Origin: Candidatus Azambacteria bacterium
GTDB taxonomy: Bacteria; Patescibacteriota; Minisyncoccia; GWC2-36-17; WO2-46-25
Reading direction: 5' to 3'
DNA length: 55,976 nucleotides
Assembly (NCBI GenBank): GCA_016234725.1
Contig: JACRAK010000029.1
Span: 1 to 55,976, forward strand
Positions 22,779-55,976 of the stretch are shown one piece after another. The first letter of the stretch is position 1, and each line of letters starts with the position of its first letter. The position numbers and the translations under genes were made by a program. The notes below the pieces were generated by a model. The model did not search any database. It had not been told where the DNA came from and worked only from the letters and a program-made list of their open reading frames with translations.

Positions 22779-22900
22779 CCCGCCTAAATTTTTGCACTCA
22801 TGTGCACGATGCTGGCCACATATCTGCTCTGGTTCTAGTATTGCAACCGTATAAAACCGTTTGTTTAAAGAGCTACTTTTAGTGCAAAAACTTAGGCGGG
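22779..22900. mobile_element. Family F palindromic element (CCCGCC...GGCGGG ends)
   Basis: TIR cccgcctaaatttttgcact / agtgcaaaaacttaggcggg (19/20), flanked by TCAA on both sides. Confidence 0.8.
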
Positions 22901-23125: not shown

Positions 23126-23153
23126 GCATACGGGCATTCGGAGCAAACCGGTG

Positions 23154-23590
23154 AAGATGTACGTAAGCCGGATTCTGTTCCGCCAGCCGGAAAACCGGCC
23201 GGTCGGCGACGATCATTTCTCTTGTCACCGCATTACTGCGGTGATCATGCGACTACCTGCTTTCAAGGAAAGCATATTGTCTTGCACCCGACAAGGATTT
23301 GGCCGTTTCACCCCCGGTGTTGCCATCGGGGCTCGCCCTTGCTCGCTTGCGCGAGAAGGGCGCCTTCCGTCTTTCGTTGGAAAGCGTCTCTGTTCGCACC
23401 TCTAAGGTCGCCCTCGACGGCCGTTAGCCGCTGCCGTTGCCCGCCCAAATTTTTTATCTCTTGACTTTTTGTCGCGCATGCGCAAACGGCGTTTTTCGCG
23501 TTCGCAAAAAATAAAAAATTTGGGCGGGCGGGTGTCCGGACTTTCCTCTCCCCCGCGTTACCGCGTGAGAGCGATCGTCTGTGCATCTTA
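23154..23590 (-). ncRNA. rnpB: RNase P RNA with a family F-like hairpin insertion
   Basis: Universal motifs GAGGAAAGTCC and AACAGAATCCGGCTTA; P1 AAGATGCAC/GTACATCTT. Confidence 0.95.
23440..23528. mobile_element. Family F-like element inside rnpB
   Basis: cccgcccaaatttttta / taaaaaatttgggcggg, perfect 17-bp inverted repeat. Confidence 0.8.
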
Positions 23591-50962: not shown

Positions 50963-53068
50963 TTACTTTATCTTCCCCGCAATGATGTCTTCGGCAATAT
51001 TTTTCGGCACCTCGTCATAATGGGAGAATTCCATCGAGAATGAAGCGCGCCCTTCCGTCATGGAGCGGATCTGCGTGGAATAGCCGAACATCTTCGCGAG
51101 AGGCACCTTTGCGGTGATGACCTTGATATTGCCCCGGTCATCGATGCTTTCGATCTTGCCGCGTTTTGAGTTCAGGTCGCCGGTCACATCGCCCATGAAT
51201 TGCGGGGGGGTGATCGCCACCACCTTCATGACCGGTTCCAGGATCACGGGGTCTGCGCGCCGCACGCATTCCTGGAATGCCATGGAGCCCGCGATCTTGA
51301 ACGCCGCCTCGGACGAGTCGACTTCATGGTATGAACCGTCATAAATGATCGCCTTCACGTCCTTGATCGGATATCCGGCAACCACACCTTTATCAAGCGC
51401 CTCTTTCACGCCTTTTTCAACTGCCGGTATGTATTCTTGCGGCACGACGCCGCCTTTCAATTCGCTTTCGAATTCAAACCCTGCGCCGCGTTCACGCGGC
51501 TCTACACGCAAGCGCACATGGCCATACTGGCCGCGACCGCCGCTTTGCTTGATATACTTTCCTTCCGCTTCCGCGGTCTTCCTGATGGTCTCCCGATACG
51601 CCACCTGCGGCGTACCCACGTTCGCGCTCACGCCGAACTCGCGGAACATGCGGTCAACGATGATCTCCAAATGAAGCTCGCCCATACCTGAAATAATGGT
51701 TTCTGCCGTTTCCTGGTCAACCCGGATGCGGAACGTCGGATCCTCTTCTCCAAGCCGGCGAAGCGCAAGACCCATTTTTTCCTGATCCACTTTTGTTTTC
51801 GGTTCGATGCGGATCGAAATGACCGGTTCAGGGAATGTGATGCGTTCTAAAATGATCGGTTTATCCTCGTCGCACAGCGTGTCGCCGGTGGTGGTGGTCT
51901 TTAACCCGACCGCGGCGGCGATCTCGCCCGCAAAGATCTGGTCTACTTCTTCCCGCTGATTTGCGTGCAAGCGAAGAATGCGGCTGATGCGCTCTTTCTC
52001 TCCTTTCGTGGAATTGTATACATATGACCCTTTCGTCAGCGTTCCGGAATAAATACGGAAGAATGCAAGCGAGCCGACGAACGGATCGGTCGCGATCTTG
52101 AACGCAAGCGCTGAGAACGGTTCCGCGTCGTTCGGACTTCGCACGATCTCTGCATCGGTATTTGGGTCGATGCCGGTCACCGCGCCGCGATCAAGCGGCG
52201 ACGGAAGATAATCAATGACGGCGTCGAGCACCAACTGCACTCCTTTGTTCTTAAGCGCCGTACCGCACAATATGGGGTTAATGGTTCCTGCGATCGTCAG
52301 CCGTCTGATCACCGCCTTGATATCGGCGACCGGAAGCGCCTCTCCCGCAAGATATTTTTCCATCATCGCATCGTCTTCGGACGCGATGGCGTCGATCATT
52401 TCTTCCCGGTATTTTGCCGCCCGTTCTTTTTCCGTATCGGGGATCTCTTTACTATCGAGGATCTCGCCGTGGCCTCCCGAGAACGTAATGAATTTTTCCG
52501 TGATCAGATCGATCACGCCTTCGAATTTCTCTTCTTCACCGACGGGGATCTGGATAGGCACCGCTTTGGGGTTCAGCCGCTCCCGAATGGACGCAACGTC
52601 TTTTTCCCACCGCGCGCCGGTACGATCGAGCTTATTGATAAAACAAACACGCGGCACTTTATATTTGTCCGCCTGATGCCATACCGTTTCCGATTGCGGC
52701 TCCACGCCCGCTACGCCGTCAAACACCACGACGCCGCCATCGAGTACGCGGAGCGAGCGCTCCACTTCAACGGTGAAATCCACGTGTCCCGGCGTATCGA
52801 TCAAATTGATGCGATGTTCAAACGCCTTATTTCCCTTTTGGTAGGTCGGGATCCAAAAACAGGTGGTCGCGGCGGCGGTGATCGTAATACCGCGTTCGCG
52901 TTCCTGTTCCATCCAATCCATGACCGCCGCGCCTTCATGTACTTCGCCGATCTTATGCGACACGCCCGTATAAAAAAGAACGCGCTCAGACACGGTGGTC
53001 TTGCCCGCATCAATGTGCGCGATAATGCCGATATCTCGTACTTTCTCTAACGGGTATGCTCGTGTCAT
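50963..53068 (-). CDS. fusA: Elongation factor G
   Basis: AHIDAGKTT; DTPGHVDF; GMGELHL; QSGGRGQYG. Confidence 0.98.
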
Positions 53069-53154
53069 AAATATCGTATAACCTGTAACTTAAATCTTGA
53101 AACGTAGGAACAGGAACCCGTGATTCACGTTTCAAGTTACACGCTTCATGCTTT
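53069..53154. repeat. Inverted heptamer arrays at the rpsG-fusA junction
   Basis: taacctg taactta aatcttg aaacgta ... attcacg tttcaag ttacacg cttcatg. Confidence 0.8.
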
Positions 53155-53622
53155 CTACCAGCTGAAATGCGCAAATGCCTTATTTGCCTCTGCCATTCTG
53201 TGAGTATCCATCTTCTTCTTCACTGCGGCGCCTTCGTTCTTTGCGGCAAGCAGGATCTCTTCCGCAAGTTTATCCGCCATCGGCTTCCCCTTTTTTGCAT
53301 GCGCGGCGGTAATGAGCCAGCGGAATGCAAGTGCAAGCCGGCGCTCCCCCCGCACCTCGCGAGGAACCTGATAGTTCGCACCGCCGATCCTTTTTGACTT
53401 GAGCTCAACGAGCGGCGAGATATTGCGGATCGCCGCATCAAAAAGCTCCATGGGGTCTTTTTTTGATGTTTCCTTCACGTTTTCAAGCGCACCATAGACA
53501 ACGCGTTCCGCGGTCGTCTTCTTGCCACCGATCATCACGATGTTGATAAGCTTTGCCACCACCGGATTGTTATACAGATGATCCGGCTCTATTTCCCTTT
53601 TGTATTTTTGCTTTTTCCTCAT
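53155..53622 (-). CDS. rpsG: 30S ribosomal protein S7
   Basis: RIGGANYQVP; HRMAEANKAFAHF. Confidence 0.97.
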   Translation of the reverse strand: MRKKQKYKREIEPDHLYNNPVVAKLINIVMIGGKKTTAERVVYGALENVKETSKKDPMELFDAAIRNISPLVELKSKRIGGANYQVPREVRGERRLALAFRWLITAAHAKKGKPMADKLAEEILLAAKNEGAAVKKKMDTHRMAEANKAFAHFSW

Positions 53623-53640
53623 TTTTTCCTTATTTCCTTA

Positions 53641-53915
53641 TTAGAACCTATCTTAATAATATATTCAGCCGCGATACGTGTCCATTCCGCGTTGGGACAA
53701 GGAGCGACGACGCAGGAGTAGTTTCACTACTTCAAGAAGGAGCGACGCGGTATCCGGCGCGGAATGGCCGTATCCCTTCGGGTTCTGGCGATTTTCATTC
53801 ATCACTTTGTTGCTTCTCGTCATGGTAATATAATTAGCATTTCCTCGTCGCGCCTCGTGCTGAAAGAAAATCGCTCAAGAACGCGGCTAGAATCTATTAT
53901 TAAGATAGGTTCTAA
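53641..53915. mobile_element. MITE-like element between rpsL and rpsG
   Basis: TIR ttagaacctatcttaataatatattc-agccgcg / cgcggctagaatctattattaagataggttctaa; the right end overlaps the rpsL stop. Confidence 0.8.
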
Positions 53916-54328
53916 GCTTTTTTTGCCACCTTCGATCCGTATTTCGATCTCCCTCGTTTCCTATTCTCTACTCCGGAGGTATCGAGCACACCGCGCACTA
54001 CGTGATAACGCACGCCCGGAAGATCCTTCACTCTTCCGCCGCGGATGACCACCACCGAGTGCTCTTGCAAGCTATGTCCTTCGCCGCCGATGTATGCCGT
54101 TACTTCTTGGCCGTTGGTAAGCCGTACTCTCGCAACTTTTCGGAGCGCCGAGTTCGGTTTTTTCGGGGTAATGGTCTTCACGACGGTGCATACTCCCCGC
54201 TTGAACGGCGAGTTATAATCTTTCGGCTTATTCTTGATAACGTTAAAACTCGTCCCCAATGCAGGCGACTTTGATTTGCTTGAAACCTTCTTTCTTCGCT
54301 TTCGCACCAATTGATTTATGGTTGGCAT
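53912..54328 (-). CDS. rpsL: 30S ribosomal protein S12
   Basis: MPTINQLVR; [10 protein letters not shown]; [10 protein letters not shown]. Confidence 0.98.
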
Positions 54329-54379
54329 ATCTCTATATAAAAAAATGCATCGCTTCATGCGATACCTAACGCACTACCA

Positions 54380-54408
54380 AAGATAGCAAATGCCTCGGCA
54401 AAAGTCAA
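54380..54408 (-). promoter_or_regulatory. Putative str operon promoter
   Basis: TTGACT-17 nt-TATCTT with extended TGn. Confidence 0.55.
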
Positions 54409-54518
54409 CCCCGTTTACAATCTTTTAACATGACAACTCATACAGTACGAAAAAGCCGCAAGGCGGCTTCGCCTTATTGTCTCATTAAAAACAGGACAGC
54501 GCCGAGATTGTAACGGGG
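54409..54518. repeat. Family D element, copy 3
   Basis: ccccgtttacaatct / agattgtaacgggg; core agccgcaaggcggcttcgccttattg; 11-bp direct repeat gtcaaccccgt. Confidence 0.82.
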
Positions 54519-54541
54519 TCAACCCCGTCTTAAAAATGAGA

Positions 54542-55156
54542 TCAGAATGAAACGCCAGTAAACAGGCGGAAGAGGACTCTGATAATAGGCATAAGAAATT
54601 GAAATCCGAAGAAAATAAAAAGAAGCAGGATGAGCGTGCCGTTCTGCTCTAAAAATCGTTCTATTGCCGCATGCCGCTCCCCCAATACGGCAAACAGCAG
54701 CTTTGACCCGTCAAGCGGAGGGATCGGCACAAGGTTAAACACTCCAAGGAGCACGTTTATGTATACGATGACCTCAAGCGCCATCGCAAACGCGTCAGGA
54801 AGTGAAACGACGCGCAACACCATACCAAGCACGAGCGCGATGGAAAAATTCGCCAGCGGGCCTGCTGCGGCAATATATGCCACGCCTCGTTTCGGGTCGC
54901 GCAAAAACATCGGATCATACGGCACCGGCTTCGCCCACCCGAACAAGAAGCTTCCCCCGCTCCCGAAGTAGGTCAACAGCGGGAACAAAAAAGAGCCGAA
55001 CACTTCGAGATGCTTCACCGGATTAAGCGTCAGCCGGCCGAGATTTTTCGCGGTAGGGTCGCCTAAGTGATTGGCCATCGCGCCATGCGCCACCTCGTGA
55101 ATTATCGCAGAAAAGATGAGTACGACGATCTGAAAAATGGCAAGCTGAAAATCCAT
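54542..55156 (-). CDS. Site-2 protease (M50 family)
   Basis: HEVAHG (HExxH); AAAGP; FNLVPIPPLDG. Confidence 0.93.
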   Translation of the reverse strand: MDFQLAIFQIVVLIFSAIIHEVAHGAMANHLGDPTAKNLGRLTLNPVKHLEVFGSFLFPLLTYFGSGGSFLFGWAKPVPYDPMFLRDPKRGVAYIAAAGPLANFSIALVLGMVLRVVSLPDAFAMALEVIVYINVLLGVFNLVPIPPLDGSKLLFAVLGERHAAIERFLEQNGTLILLLFIFFGFQFLMPIIRVLFRLFTGVSF

Positions 55157-55218
55157 ATGCCCCCTATCATAGCAGACTCTTGATTATCTTGAAAGAACAT
55201 GCTACCTTAACTTGTACC

Positions 55219-55289
55219 GTGAAACATGAAACTTGAAACTTATTATTTATCGTTTCTATGATTCAAGATTCATGCTTTACGATTCATGA
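55219..55289. repeat. Inverted heptamer arrays upstream of rpmB
   Basis: gtgaaac atgaaac ttgaaac ... gattcaa gattcat gctttac gattcat. Confidence 0.78.
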
Positions 55290-55292
55290 ATT

Positions 55293-55481
55293 ATGCCACG
55301 ATCATGTACTGTGTGCGGAAAGACATCTGCATTGTCCACCGTCATCAGAAAATTAAGAGGGAAATTCAACCCGACCACAAAGAAGCGAAAATACCCAAAC
55401 CTCCAGTGGGCGGTCATTGACAGCGCCCGCGTTCGCGCATGCACGCAATGCATCCGAACCGCGAACAAAGCAAGTAAATAA
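55293..55481 (+). CDS. rpmB: 50S ribosomal protein L28
   Basis: MPRSCTVCGK...KRKYPNLQW...ACTQCIR. Confidence 0.9.
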   Translation: MPRSCTVCGKTSALSTVIRKLRGKFNPTTKKRKYPNLQWAVIDSARVRACTQCIRTANKASK

Positions 55482-55492
55482 CATTCGTTTCA

Positions 55493-55520
55493 AAAACCCC
55501 GCCCTCTGGGCGGGGTTTTT
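55493..55520 (+). terminator. rpmB terminator
   Basis: aaaaccccgccc-tct-gggcggggttttt. Confidence 0.75.
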
Positions 55521-55554
55521 GTTTTTTACGGCTTATACTATAATGAAACACGCA

Positions 55555-55843
55555 CGGGCTGTAGTACCTGCCCGCCATAAGCCTAACACGTGGTCGCCAC
55601 GGTATTCGCCGGAATATATTACTCTGTACTCCTGTGTATTTCTCTGACAGGCGATTGGCAGGCGGGCAATGGCAGTACGCATGCACTTGCCCGCCCAAGT
55701 TTTTCATCGGGCCATCGTATAGTGGTAGTACGCAAGGCTGGGGGTCTTGTAGTCTGGGTTCGATTCCCAGTGGCCCGAAAGATAAAAACTTAGGCGGGTG
55801 AAGGGTGCATGTAGTCCGAGTTCGATTCTCGGCATCCCGACCA
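55555..55843 (+). tRNA. Outer tRNA-Pro (probably UGG) interrupted by two palindromic insertions; function uncertain
   Basis: Exons CGGGCTGTAGTA | CAATGGCAGTACGCATGCACTTG | GGGTGCATGTAGTCCGAGTTCGATTCTCGGCATCCCGACCA; C1-G72 and A73 Pro identity, encoded CCA; inserts at 55567-55666 and about 55690-55802. Confidence 0.75.
55708..55778 (+). tRNA. Inner tRNA-Pro(GGG), intact, nested in the anticodon-loop insertion of the outer tRNA
   Basis: CGGGCCA...TGGCCCG-A; anticodon arm CAAGG-CTGGGGG-TCTTG; T-arm CTGGG-TTCGATT-CCCAG. Confidence 0.93.
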
Positions 55844-55976
55844 TTCAAGACAAGTCAAATTTTCGGAAGAGGTTGCCTCGGGGCTTCGCCCCTCGGCATC
55901 TCCGCGTCCCGCAAGGCGGGACGCGGTAAATCGCCACGGTTCGAAAAAATCCATTCGGACTTTCCGGTTGAGGAGA

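Follow-up and report, generated by a model that had tools for sequence, protein, structure and literature searches.

An intact tRNA-Pro gene nested within the anticodon loop of a second tRNA-Pro gene in a Candidatus Azambacteria genome

Results

A tRNA-Pro gene within a tRNA-Pro gene downstream of rpmB

The stretch of DNA analysed here (hereafter the window, 55,976 nt) is contig JACRAK010000029.1 of a Candidatus Azambacteria bacterium, whose genome we denote G000. Close to its right-hand end, downstream of a ribosomal protein gene, an intact tRNA-Pro gene lies between the separated parts of another, in the arrangement listed below, where "shell" denotes the interrupted outer gene and "cassette" the arm-bounded insert in its anticodon loop.

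55293..55481 (+): rpmB, encoding an L28-like ribosomal protein; 62-aa ORF upstream of the nested locus
55491..55521 (+): intrinsic terminator-like hairpin 3' of rpmB; 14-bp stem, then a T run
55539..55544 (+): TATAAT hexamer, candidate -10 box; 10 nt 5' of the outer gene
55555..55566 (+): shell tRNA-Pro, 5' acceptor strand, positions 8-9 and start of the D stem; homologous shell in G006
55567..55666 (+): insert 1, in the shell's D arm; 100 nt, from a second family of palindromic elements
55667..55685 (+): shell tRNA-Pro, D loop, 3' strand of the D stem, position 26, 5' strand of the anticodon stem and first loop base
55686..55689 (+): CTTG, conserved left flank of the cassette, also found at other nested loci
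55690..55704 (+): left arm of the cassette, CCCGCCCAAGTTTTT; inverted repeat, family-wide motif
55708..55778 (+): inner intact tRNA-Pro(GGG), from ARAGORN and Rfam; CCA not encoded
55784..55798 (+): right arm of the cassette, AAAAACTTAGGCGGG; inverted repeat
55799..55802 (+): TGAA, conserved right flank of the cassette, also found at other nested loci
within 55803..55843 (+): shell tRNA-Pro, GGGT (the last four loop bases), 3' strand of the anticodon stem and variable loop
within 55803..55843 (+): shell tRNA-Pro, T arm, 3' acceptor strand, discriminator A and CCA (55841-55843)

The Pfam Ribosomal_L28 profile aligned with the rpmB ORF over 59 of its 60 positions (E 2.6e-4; 21.4 bits, under the 27-bit cut-off), and the rpmB-tRNA-Pro arrangement is orthologous in relatives. 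The TATAAT hexamer may serve as the -10 box of the entire nested unit; a promoter scan with a two-hexamer consensus called no promoter at this position, and a similar sequence, CTATAATGA, precedes the plain tRNA gene of a relative, G008.

The nested structure, an intact gene within a split outer gene, is real. ARAGORN called the inner tRNA-Pro(GGG) at 55707-55779, and Rfam RF00005 matched it at 55708-55778 over model positions 1-71 (58.5 bits, E 2e-11, threshold 29), which, with its full cloverleaf, makes it a full member of the tRNA family. The enclosing arms are 15 nt each and 93% complementary, and the insert in the anticodon loop, from CTTG through TGAA, measures 117 nt, of which the inner tRNA accounts for 71. 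The initial annotation had described just such an intact gene between palindromic arms, and it had also placed the outer tRNA-Pro correctly at 55555-55843, with an encoded CCA and one C:U mismatch in the acceptor stem: paired by hand, the outer cloverleaf has 6 of 7 acceptor pairs, 4 of 4 in the D stem, 5 of 5 in the anticodon stem and 5 of 5 in the T stem. As encoded, this outer gene was called by neither ARAGORN nor Rfam and has no 7-nt anticodon loop. Its resemblance to tRNA-Pro is nevertheless far beyond chance, since ARAGORN called it as tRNA-Pro once both inserts were deleted in silico. Excision of insert 1, as proposed earlier, leaves GTAC-AATGGCA-GTAC, and the ends of the insert pair (8 nt exactly complementary, 55569-76 with 55661-68). 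The distal part of the shell (55803..55843) is a 74% direct repeat of the 3' half of the inner gene, and is 87.5% identical to the shell of a Pro(CGG) locus on another contig of G000, C26.

Could the repeats of two tRNA-Pro genes have been misjoined in metagenome assembly? Four groundwater DNA runs from two studies contain the window sequence in part or whole, and an independent assembly of one of them (X1) gave a 1,916-nt contig at depth 22 that covers 55200-55743 with 0 differences, and includes rpmB, the 5' part of the outer gene, insert 1, the left arm and the start of the inner tRNA. The left side of the locus is thus confirmed. The X1 contig stops at 55743 within the inner tRNA, the right-hand junctions were recovered in short pieces only, and the locus lies 133 nt from the contig end, all of which leaves some room for an artefact on the right. 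The same architecture and junction motif recur at the orthologous site in G006 and at 20 other loci in many genomes, and we regard a misassembly as scarcely credible.

The outer gene was a GGG tRNA struck at TG

Deleting 55690-55802 gives the loop CTTGGGG on a 6-bp stem, as the initial annotation had noted, and ARAGORN accepts the product as a 76-nt Pro(UGG). The sequence of this product stands; its reading as a UGG tRNA does not. Uninterrupted genes of the outer type, found in groundwater contigs of other organisms (run X4 at depth 29, run X1 at depth 6.5), read ...GTAGTACGCA, TGCATG, GGGTGCATG..., with the loop A-TG-GGGT, and putting TG in place of the entire segment from CTTG to TGAA (55686-55802) restores a standard 74-nt Pro(GGG) according to ARAGORN. 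The outer gene was formerly a GGG tRNA, not a UGG tRNA, and was struck at TG.

A search of the genome for another tRNA-Pro(UGG), set beforehand as a test of the view that the locus supplies two isoacceptors, found an intact gene at C16:35103-35174 (ARAGORN; 56 bits in Rfam). The 43 tRNAs of G000 include an intact Pro(UGG), Pro(CGG) and Pro(GGG), so that decoding lacks nothing without the outer gene.

Splicing of the outer halves is disfavoured

If the outer tRNA were functional, the hairpin-bounded inserts would act as introns and its halves would be ligated, for example by RtcB, so that the locus would make two mature tRNAs. The initial annotation had raised a version of this idea, in which one precursor yields two Pro isoacceptors by excision and ligation; this is not supported, since the outer gene was itself a GGG tRNA and the spliced product would only repeat the anticodon of the inner gene. 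G000 keeps an operon of 2H-phosphoesterase, archease and RtcB in a genome of 0.92 Mb, as splicing would lead one to expect, but the splicing endonuclease domain tRNA_int_endo (PF01974) gave no match in this genome, which is scored 100% complete, in a search whose control matched four archaeal genomes. RtcB itself was found in only 3 of 20 genomes with the arm motif described below, compared with 98 of 301 overall, and was not found in G285 (which has 7 nests), G006, G007 or G008.

The positions of the inserts, in loops as with many archaeal introns, suit splicing, as does the tolerance of a member of the hairpin family by the RNase P RNA gene (see below); the junctions themselves do not. Pairing by hand at the C19, C13, C10 and C26 junctions gave bulges on one strand only, with neither a bulge-helix-bulge nor a restored 7-nt loop, and the two orientations in which the hairpins occur would present complementary, and so different, RNA sequences to any enzyme. 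Several cutting schemes were tried and rejected. Cuts at fixed offsets from the motif, keeping (0,2), (1,1) or (2,0) flank bases, gave wrong anticodons or loop sizes across loci; cuts staggered by 2 nt in the manner of RNase III, and cuts like those of RNase P/Z at the base of the arms, both worked by hand, gave a wrong loop size or anticodon (in one example a Thr body with a Lys-type loop); and leaving CTTGAA in the loop produced a 78-nt 'Phe(GAA)' in ARAGORN, which we regard as an artefact.

The state of the shell speaks for a working outer tRNA, and it also weighs against our own preferred reading of the outer gene as dead. The focal shell remains near-perfectly paired, encodes CCA, differs from that of G006 by one compensatory T-stem change, and is accepted by ARAGORN when restored; together with the arms it is conserved about as much as the adjacent rpmB. 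Constraint on the shell could account for this. Elsewhere, shells carry extra inserts and have about 18% broken pairs overall, some lack whole arms (the Trp shell), and live genes turn into shells in sister genomes. Splicing of the outer halves is accordingly disfavoured, and we hold a functional outer tRNA to be very unlikely.

Nested tRNA genes recur across the genome and the class

Nesting is an architecture found genome-wide in G000 and class-wide. Read by eye, at least 9 of the 43 tRNA genes of G000 are in nested loci (Pro-GGG, Pro-CGG, Ala-CGC, Glu-CTC, Thr-TGT, Val-GAC, Ile-GAT, Leu-CAG and Trp), and two further loci, Val-CAC and Val-TAC, were found by script only. Of 301 genomes sampled from the class, 20 contain the arm motif CTTG-CCCKCC...GGMGGG-TGAA, and a reversed-pattern control gave 0 matches in the rows checked. 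At every one of the 20 loci fetched from other genomes, an intact inner tRNA lies within an outer tRNA for the same amino acid, and one nested locus is three layers deep. The junctions obey one rule in both orientations, in which TG becomes CTTG-hairpin-TGAA and CA becomes TTCA-hairpin-CAAG, and at all nests read the inner gene has the orientation of the outer, whatever that of the hairpin. In a scan of all species, 80 stretches (L034-L113) were examined among at least 120 listed; 5 of the 81 matches in them enclose a tRNA, the rest being GC-rich chance matches. Text searches of the literature, with subscription journals outside their coverage, found no nested tRNA genes in bacteria.

An automated comparison of outer with inner genes, which parsed 30 of 32 loci, counted 536 canonical pairs among the 651 aligned and 76 altered on both sides relative to the inner gene; these totals are approximate, with the flank mis-set for CCCTCCCACC-type arms. 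Judged by this pairing, the outer genes are diverged real tRNAs.

The same comparison bears on a local origin of the nests, in which a tRNA-free hairpin enters a resident gene and the inner copy arises in situ, for instance when break repair at the hairpin copies a sister or allelic tRNA into the loop; no ready-made cassette would be needed, and the outer gene would still be dead. Several observations favour such copying. The arms vary with the genome and not with the tRNA they enclose (the fetched G285 loci all have CCCTCC-type arms, mostly CCCTCCCACC, and the G000 loci have CCCGCCYAARTTTT), a pattern that sits uneasily with a free exchange of cassettes. At Ala-CGC (34 + 36 nt) and Ile-GAT (47 nt) the parts of the outer gene match the inner gene with 100% identity, which suggests local copying or gene conversion, and the Ala locus contains tandem copies of a unit made of the 5' half plus an arm. 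The constant co-orientation of inner and outer genes fits as well, as does the existence and transposition of tRNA-free hairpins of the same family. Most outer genes, however, differ from their inner genes by many compensatory pairs: at L029 all 22 of 22 pairs are kept at 49/73 identity, 8 of them altered on both sides, and the corresponding numbers of altered pairs are 6 at the C6 Val locus and 5 at L014. Moreover, the focal inner and outer genes belong to different lineages, both known as plain genes elsewhere, a series of layers (A/B/C) holds three distinct alleles, and the identical cases can be explained by gene conversion between close direct repeats. We consider a local origin unlikely.

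The cassette hairpin family moves as DNA

Hairpins of the cassette family also occur in the window without a tRNA:

22779..22900 (strand not assigned): tRNA-free copy of the cassette hairpin family; 122 nt, intergenic, TCAA duplicated at its flanks
23440..23528 (-): cassette-family hairpin copy, an enlarged hairpin within the RNase P RNA gene (23149-23590, minus strand)

The 122-nt copy is missing from 3 of 3 congeners examined (G004, G001 and G002), and comparison with the empty site shows a 4-bp duplication; as this tRNA-free copy demonstrates, the cassette hairpin family moves as DNA. RF00010 recognised the RNase P RNA gene at 111 bits, and 105 nt of the gene stand in place of 13 in the model; the hairpin is enlarged likewise in G004, and G006, G008 and G303 have one of ~20 nt at the same position. 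In G000, 52 single arms fit the consensus with no more than 2 changes, mostly as inverted pairs 20-220 nt apart. With terminal inverted repeats (arms of 15-21 nt), many copies and, at the intergenic copy, a target duplication with empty sites, the family is MITE-like; no cognate autonomous element or transposase with matching ends was found, and no arm pair in G000 spans more than about 220 nt. That no transposase or recombinase was found linked to the elements counts against cassette-borne replacement, and so does the form of the tRNA-loop copies, which are unlike simple insertions: TG alone is repeated, with an extra CT and AA absent from the uninterrupted gene, in contrast to the plain 4-bp duplication at the intergenic copy. 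This extra CT and AA is left unaccounted for by att models of serine or tyrosine recombinases, by IS200/IS605-type insertion 3' of a tetranucleotide, and by a simple 2- or 4-bp duplication.

An arm search of G285 found six sites, of which five are arms of known nested loci and the sixth lies at C5:64187. Viral contigs gave 5 arm matches, all in GC-rich coding sequence and 0 with a tRNA, and 0 matches to a second arm variant.

Insert 1 represents another family, whose relatives with the same ~23-nt ends lie on C21 and C29 of G000, twice in G006 and twice in G003; six copies measured by script are 100-104 nt long, and the insert matches no Rfam family. Nor does any Rfam family match the ~120-nt elements associated with T loops or a 212-nt insert in tRNA-Thr(GGU). 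Shells gain further tRNA-free hairpins at the Thr, Leu and C26 Pro loci, as the focal shell has gained insert 1.

A protein gene may have been entered as well. ThpR of G000 has 10-14 extra residues in a hairpin segment compared with three CPR homologs, and the segment aligned without gaps to solved structures; an in-frame hairpin insertion is likely from the sequence.

Layer order and the state of the site in relatives

Members of one genus differ in the state of the same gene, which is live in one genome and survives in others as a dead shell. One Pro(UGG) type, compared over its last 30 nt, is the live inner gene in G210 and is identical (30/30) to the shell of G303 and to the middle layer of G269, and the shell of G210 matches the outermost layer of G269 at 28 of 30 positions.

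At the focal site, the alignment of the rpmB-tRNA-Pro region suggested by the initial annotation recovered insert-free alleles in G004 and G008, where a plain gene of the inner type follows rpmB with 3' flanks resembling those of the shell; G006 keeps the full nest. The plain gene of G008 has a TATAAT-containing 5' flank in common with the focal locus, and in G007 an insert-1-like hairpin is joined to the 5' end of the tRNA. The states of G004, G008 and G007 may be read as nest collapse. The focal inner gene is 99%, 100% and 94% identical to the plain tRNA 3' of rpmB in G004, G007 and G008, respectively, which is only suggestive of horizontal arrival: other tRNAs in the comparison are 73-100% identical, and the value for G007 stands no higher than the upper end of the conservation usual among tRNAs (76-95%).

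Discussion

We propose that the locus arose by serial replacement of tRNA genes by palindrome-bounded cassettes, and that the outer gene is a dead shell, an explanation we consider probable. It is in essence the second possibility offered by the initial annotation, that an element carrying a tRNA for the same amino acid killed its host gene. A cassette composed of CTTG, an arm, a complete tRNA-Pro(GGG), an arm and TGAA would have replaced TG (U33-G34) in the outer anticodon loop, and a palindromic element of the second type would later have entered the D arm. Decoding would fall to the inner gene alone. It would be transcribed from the old gene's promoter, because it has none of its own, within a precursor of ~300 nt in which the arms would clamp into a helix and the inner cloverleaf would fold independently; in a predicted fold (z -2.7) the arms pair and the inner gene adopts its cloverleaf. 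RNase P, 3' trimming and the CCA-adding enzyme would free the inner tRNA, and RNase III may cleave the arm helix; the genome encodes RNase P RNA, RNase III and a CCA-adding-type enzyme.

A shell that no longer decodes might still be useful, as a structured leader and trailer that gives the inner gene a promoter, protection, or recruitment of RNase P or RNase III. The inner gene adjoins the arms and has no promoter of its own; at several loci the arms are stacked on the inner acceptor stem or close to it, and the RNase P RNA of the genus has a hairpin of the same arm sequence. Arms and flanks are also strongly conserved across families, but the DNA-level mobility that was tested accounts for conserved ends without a role in RNA. 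Shells range from intact to fragmentary, and the close relatives G004 and G008 manage with a plain gene at the same site. A useful shell therefore seems to us distinctly improbable.

Extended to other loci, the replacement reading holds that cassettes of the MITE-like hairpin family would land at TG in the D or anticodon loops of tRNA genes, recurrently in CPR bacteria. A strike on an essential gene would be seen only where the cassette brings a working tRNA of the same kind; the newcomer would become the live gene and the old gene a shell, decaying or lost by recombination, and the cycle could restart inside the newcomer. As a more tentative proposal, which is possible but which we would not press, tRNA genes in CPR bacteria might be mobile, with arm-tRNA-arm cassettes acting as self-propagating replacements in the manner of homing or gene drive. 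A structure- or ssDNA-specific enzyme would then target the loop TG of tRNA and RNase P RNA genes, and one tRNA allele would sweep through populations and species, leaving a stratigraphy of replacements in dead shells.

Should replacement be the correct reading, a very small non-coding element, by bringing along a functional copy of the gene it targets, could overwrite an essential single-copy gene again and again. Such overwriting with a copy would be a strategy distinct from self-splicing introns and from integrase-based restoration. The under-calling and mis-calling of genes by tRNA finders in CPR genomes would then have an explanation, the succession of layers (A, then B, then C) would document the turnover of tRNA genes in a single genus, and the pattern would point to an undiscovered DNA enzyme with a preference for loops in genes of structured RNAs. 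Annotators should leave outer shells out of tRNA gene counts, and tRNAs flanked by hairpins, the enlarged hairpin of RNase P RNA and in-frame protein hairpins would be footprints of one element family.

Comparison with known systems

Group I introns interrupt the anticodon loops of bacterial tRNA genes, as the cassette does, but no group I covariance model matched in 53000-55976 at E<=1, and a ribozyme core is not possible in the insert, because 71 of its 117 nt are the inner tRNA. Archaeal tRNA introns occupy canonical and non-canonical positions, and multi-intron and split tRNAs are known; they share with our loci several interruptions per gene (D and anticodon) and related inserts in different tRNAs of one genome. 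The nested loci differ from them in having a bacterial host with no EndA domain found, no bulge-helix-bulge by hand pairing and no association with RtcB, in the conserved sequence of the insert ends, and in an insert that holds a second complete tRNA of the same kind.

Phages and islands with tyrosine integrases target tRNA genes, prefer the anticodon and T loops, and carry the displaced part of the tRNA. Like them, the cassettes insert in a tRNA loop, save its function with incoming replacement sequence and are bordered by partial tRNA repeats. Unlike them, the cassette has palindromic ends and neither an integrase nor coding capacity (the 117-nt insert contains no ORF, and it is bordered by two different halves rather than one att repeat), and it brings a whole tRNA instead of a 3' part, with the old halves remaining on both sides.

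Bacterial MITEs and palindromic repeats include the Correia (NEMIS) elements of Neisseria and the Rickettsia palindromic elements. The hairpin family resembles MITEs in being small and non-coding, with terminal inverted repeats, many copies per genome, a short target duplication, presence or absence among relatives and hairpins in transcripts, and, like the Rickettsia elements, it can sit inside a structured RNA gene and, probably, in frame in a protein gene. To our knowledge, no MITE has been reported with a tRNA cargo that replaces its target tRNA, and the text searches of the literature turned up none. The cassette subset departs from MITEs in just this respect: it carries a complete tRNA gene, it lies at TG of the D or anticodon loop of a tRNA gene for the same amino acid, and constant CTTG and TGAA flanks take the place of a plain duplication, with layered shells as the result.

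Nested proline tRNA genes at the end of the window

Both ARAGORN and Rfam call an intact tRNA-Pro(GGG) gene at 55707/8-55778/9, enclosed by 15-nt inverted arms (55690-55704 and 55784-55798; 93% complementary). Surrounding this inner gene is a second tRNA-Pro in two parts, the shell (55555-55843), which has its CCA end at 55841-55843 and a D arm that is itself split by a 100-nt palindromic insert (insert 1, 55567-55666) whose ends pair. As encoded, the outer gene was called by neither program. Once the inserts were removed in silico, ARAGORN called it as tRNA-Pro, and by hand its stems pair at 6/7 positions in the acceptor (one C:U) and at 4/4, 5/5 and 5/5 positions in the rest. The nested arrangement described in the initial annotation stands, apart from the anticodon. 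An independent contig assembled from the groundwater DNA sequencing run X1 (1,916 nt, depth 22, no differences) covers 55200-55743, which means that the left-hand junctions did not arise through an error of the present assembly; the right-hand junctions are covered in this comparison by short pieces only. The last 6 nt of the shell begin a 138-nt sequence (55838-55975) that runs to the contig end and recurs, at 98.5% identity, at G000:C24:381-518, where it stands behind unrelated sequence; this repeat is separate from the nest and probably broke the assembly at the window end.

The outer gene had been taken for a UGG reader. With the insert deleted as originally proposed, ARAGORN reads a 76-nt Pro(UGG) whose anticodon stem has 6 bp; placing TG where CTTG...TGAA now stands gives it a standard 74-nt Pro(GGG). 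Uninterrupted outer-type genes, found on other organisms' contigs in groundwater runs, carry the loop A-TG-GGGT, so the outer anticodon is GGG and the UGG assignment falls. It is U33-G34 of the outer tRNA-Pro that the inserted block replaced. The Candidatus Azambacteria genome, G000 (923 kb, 32 contigs, scored 100% complete; the window is the whole of contig C19), has 43 tRNAs by ARAGORN, including Pro(CGG) on C26, Pro(GGG) on C19 and, on C16, the separate intact Pro(UGG) for which a search had been advised.

Nested tRNA genes in G000 and in other genomes

When every tRNA was compared with the genome and the loci were then read, the same nested design was found in G000 for Pro-CGG, Ala-CGC, Glu-CTC, Thr-TGT, Val-GAC, Ile-GAT, Leu-CAG and Trp, the last with a decayed shell; Val-CAC and Val-TAC nests were added by script alone. 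Each cassette holds a complete tRNA between arms of the CCCKCC-YAARTTTT / AAAAYTTR-GGMGGG type and interrupts an outer tRNA of matching amino-acid specificity, either in the D loop or in the anticodon loop. At all G000 nests a loop TG has become CTTG-hairpin-TGAA, and a CA on the tRNA strand TTCA-hairpin-CAAG, so that the orientation of the hairpin element follows the strand of the TG; the inner gene always has the orientation of the outer one. The arm sequence is specific to the genome, not to the tRNA. The Ala-CGC locus (G000:C26:14350-14700, minus strand) has three successive 5' halves with a left arm after each, two of these units forming an exact 65-nt tandem; the right arm and the outer 3' half are each present just once.

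The motif CTTGCCCKCC-N(40-200)-GGMGGGTGAA was found in 20 of the 301 genomes sampled from the class (16 of 220 genera), and a reversed-pattern control gave 0 in the rows checked. All 20 matches fetched, out of 33 listed, contain an ARAGORN-called inner tRNA within a same-amino-acid outer tRNA (Glu, Pro, Arg, Ala, Val, Met, Leu and Thr). Six of the remaining 13 are G000 loci, four of them (on C19, C10, C13 and C29) read directly and two covered only by the whole-genome locus reading or scripted comparison. When all species were scanned, 5 of 81 examined among the matches listed enclose a tRNA, the others being GC-rich chance matches; by record title, four of the five are Parcubacteria-group, Ca. 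Buchananbacteria or Ca. Saccharibacteria MAGs and the fifth is 'uncultured bacterium'. From the class distribution and these MAG records we call the host group CPR.

The hairpins as mobile DNA

By eye, G000 has about 25 copies of the hairpin family, and 52 single arms match the consensus. Three loci bear on its mobility:

Window 22779-22900: tRNA-free hairpin copy, 122 nt, intergenic, with duplicated TCAA flanks
Window 23149-23590, minus strand: RNase P RNA gene (RF00010, 111 bits)
G000:C1:695-4957 (L001): operon of 2H phosphoesterase (LigT_PEase), archease and RtcB

The 122-nt copy is absent from the orthologous site in three congeners (G004, G001 and G002), which marks it as a recent transposition. 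Its TCAA duplication is plain; the tRNA-loop junctions carry extra CT and AA. Within the RNase P RNA gene, a first-family hairpin of about 95 nt with CCCGCCCAAATTTT arms occupies 23440-23528, where the RF00010 model has 13 positions; the enlarged hairpin is also present in G004, and a ~20-nt hairpin is found there in three other genera (G006, G008 and G303). A 36-nt perfect copy lies in frame in the 2H-phosphoesterase gene (L001 750-785), directly after the invariant HxTLAR motif, a site at which the G000 protein has 10-14 extra residues relative to three CPR homologs. Insert 1 represents a second family, with ~23-nt inverted ends and a length of 100-104 nt in the six copies measured; three copies are in G000, two in G006 and two in G003, and five of the seven are placed within tRNA genes, in D arms, T loops or variable regions. 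No autonomous copy of the hairpin element was found among G000 arm pairs or by an arm search of G285, nor a viral carrier of the cassette in a search of viral contigs. Two repeat families, presumably multi-copy insertion sequences, recur at the ends of many G000 contigs (e.g. C1, C5, C8, C15-C18, C20, C21, C28-C30).

History of the outer genes

Genus g52 has a Pro(UGG) type that G210 carries as its intact inner gene. Its last 30 nt are identical to the G303 shell and to the middle layer of a nest in G269, and match the G120 shell at 28/30; the G210 shell matches the outermost G269 layer at 28/30.

G269:C1:7284-7988 (L023): three-layer nest, tRNA-Pro(UGG) in a Pro shell in another Pro shell

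The only simple ordering of these layers is that a new gene arrives in the loop of a previously live gene. Across 30 parsed loci with 651 aligned outer pairs, approximately 536 pairs are canonical and 115 broken, and some 76 differ from the inner gene on both sides, which indicates that most of the outer genes are genuine tRNAs, diverged and under relaxed constraint. In G000, outer and inner genes are identical at the Ala and Ile loci. The good preservation of the focal shell may reflect youth or constraint.

Comparison of the rpmB-tRNA-Pro locus in relatives, as proposed at the outset, yielded insert-free genes in some genomes and a full nest in another. A plain tRNA-Pro(GGG)-CCA follows rpmB in G004 (same genus) and G008, with bodies 99% and 94% identical, respectively, to the window's inner gene. 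G008 has shell-like flanks on both sides (CTATAATGA-like 5', CCA-TTCAAGA-like 3'), and G004 has its 3' flank in common with the shell. G007 carries an inner-type gene (100%) whose 5' end is fused to an insert-1-like hairpin; G006, of another genus, keeps the full nest, including the same junction, with a compensatory T-stem difference in the shell. We read the locus as an old nest that would have collapsed by recombination in some lineages. Other tRNAs among these genomes are 73-100% identical, a range against which the identity of the inner gene only suggests that it spread horizontally.

Splicing or loss of the outer gene

The initial annotation offered two readings: that one precursor yields two Pro isoacceptors by splicing, or that the element killed its host gene. 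G000 encodes RtcB, yet this ligase is unlinked to the motif, occurring in only 3 of 20 motif-positive genomes (G000, G229 and G249) versus 98 of 301 overall, and was not found in G285, which has seven nests, or in G006, G007 and G008. No tRNA_int_endo domain was found in G000, and inspection by hand revealed neither a bulge-helix-bulge at the cassette junctions nor, at any constant distance from the motif, a cut that would give every locus a proper loop. RNA from the two cassette orientations would be complementary in sequence, in keeping with recognition at the DNA level. A search of sequencing runs found the locus in no RNA run. On this sequence evidence splicing of the outer tRNA is disfavoured, and the killed host gene is the favoured reading.

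The nested unit would be transcribed from the old gene's promoter (TATAAT lies at 55539-55544, upstream of the shell; a consensus scan called no promoter). The arms would pair in the precursor and the inner cloverleaf would fold, as predicted for the unit (MFE -118.6 kcal/mol, z -2.7). RNase P, 3' trimming and CCA addition would then release the inner tRNA, with the outer halves as by-products; RNase P RNA, RNase III and a CCA-adding-type enzyme are encoded in G000. Hits on essential tRNA genes would be visible only if a working tRNA of the same kind came with the cassette, and dead shells would subsequently gather tRNA-free copies such as insert 1.

Other unusual tRNA loci in G000

The only tRNA-Thr(GGU) found (C13:16171-16456; L173) has a 212-nt insert after the anticodon. 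Its exon ends in T and the insert in G; the insert matched no Rfam family at E<=0.1, and a divergent self-splicing intron is one possibility. In six cases, Pro(UGG) among them, an intact tRNA has its last 16-25 nt directly repeated 100-220 nt downstream (L158-L162):

C16:35103-35296
C16:57283-57540
C16:3036-3273
C26:18015-18265
C13:9566-9794
C6:17655-17928

Three of the intervening segments have in common a ~120-nt element that starts with antisense T-arm-like GGGAATCGAAGGG and matched no Rfam family. A tRNA-like gene at C13:60381-60452 (minus strand; L174), scored at 41 bits by Rfam and uncalled by ARAGORN, has an encoded CCA and appears to have an 8-nt anticodon loop. tRNA-Lys(UUU) was not found in G000; a 5' part that resembles tRNA-Lys and bears an odd hairpin (C9:5376-5512; L175) runs into the end of C9, so the Lys gene may be interrupted or unassembled.

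Comparison with known systems

The focal locus opens onto a wider phenomenon that appears undescribed. The literature searched yielded no description of nested bacterial tRNA genes; a preprint on Asgard tRNA introns is unrelated. Systems for comparison include Correia and Rickettsia elements, tRNA-targeting integrases and archaeal intron transposition. On the features tested, the cassette differs from both archaeal-type introns and group I introns. The nested-tRNA hairpin elements behave like a MITE family; integrative elements can restore the tRNA gene they target, and it is these that the cassettes functionally resemble.
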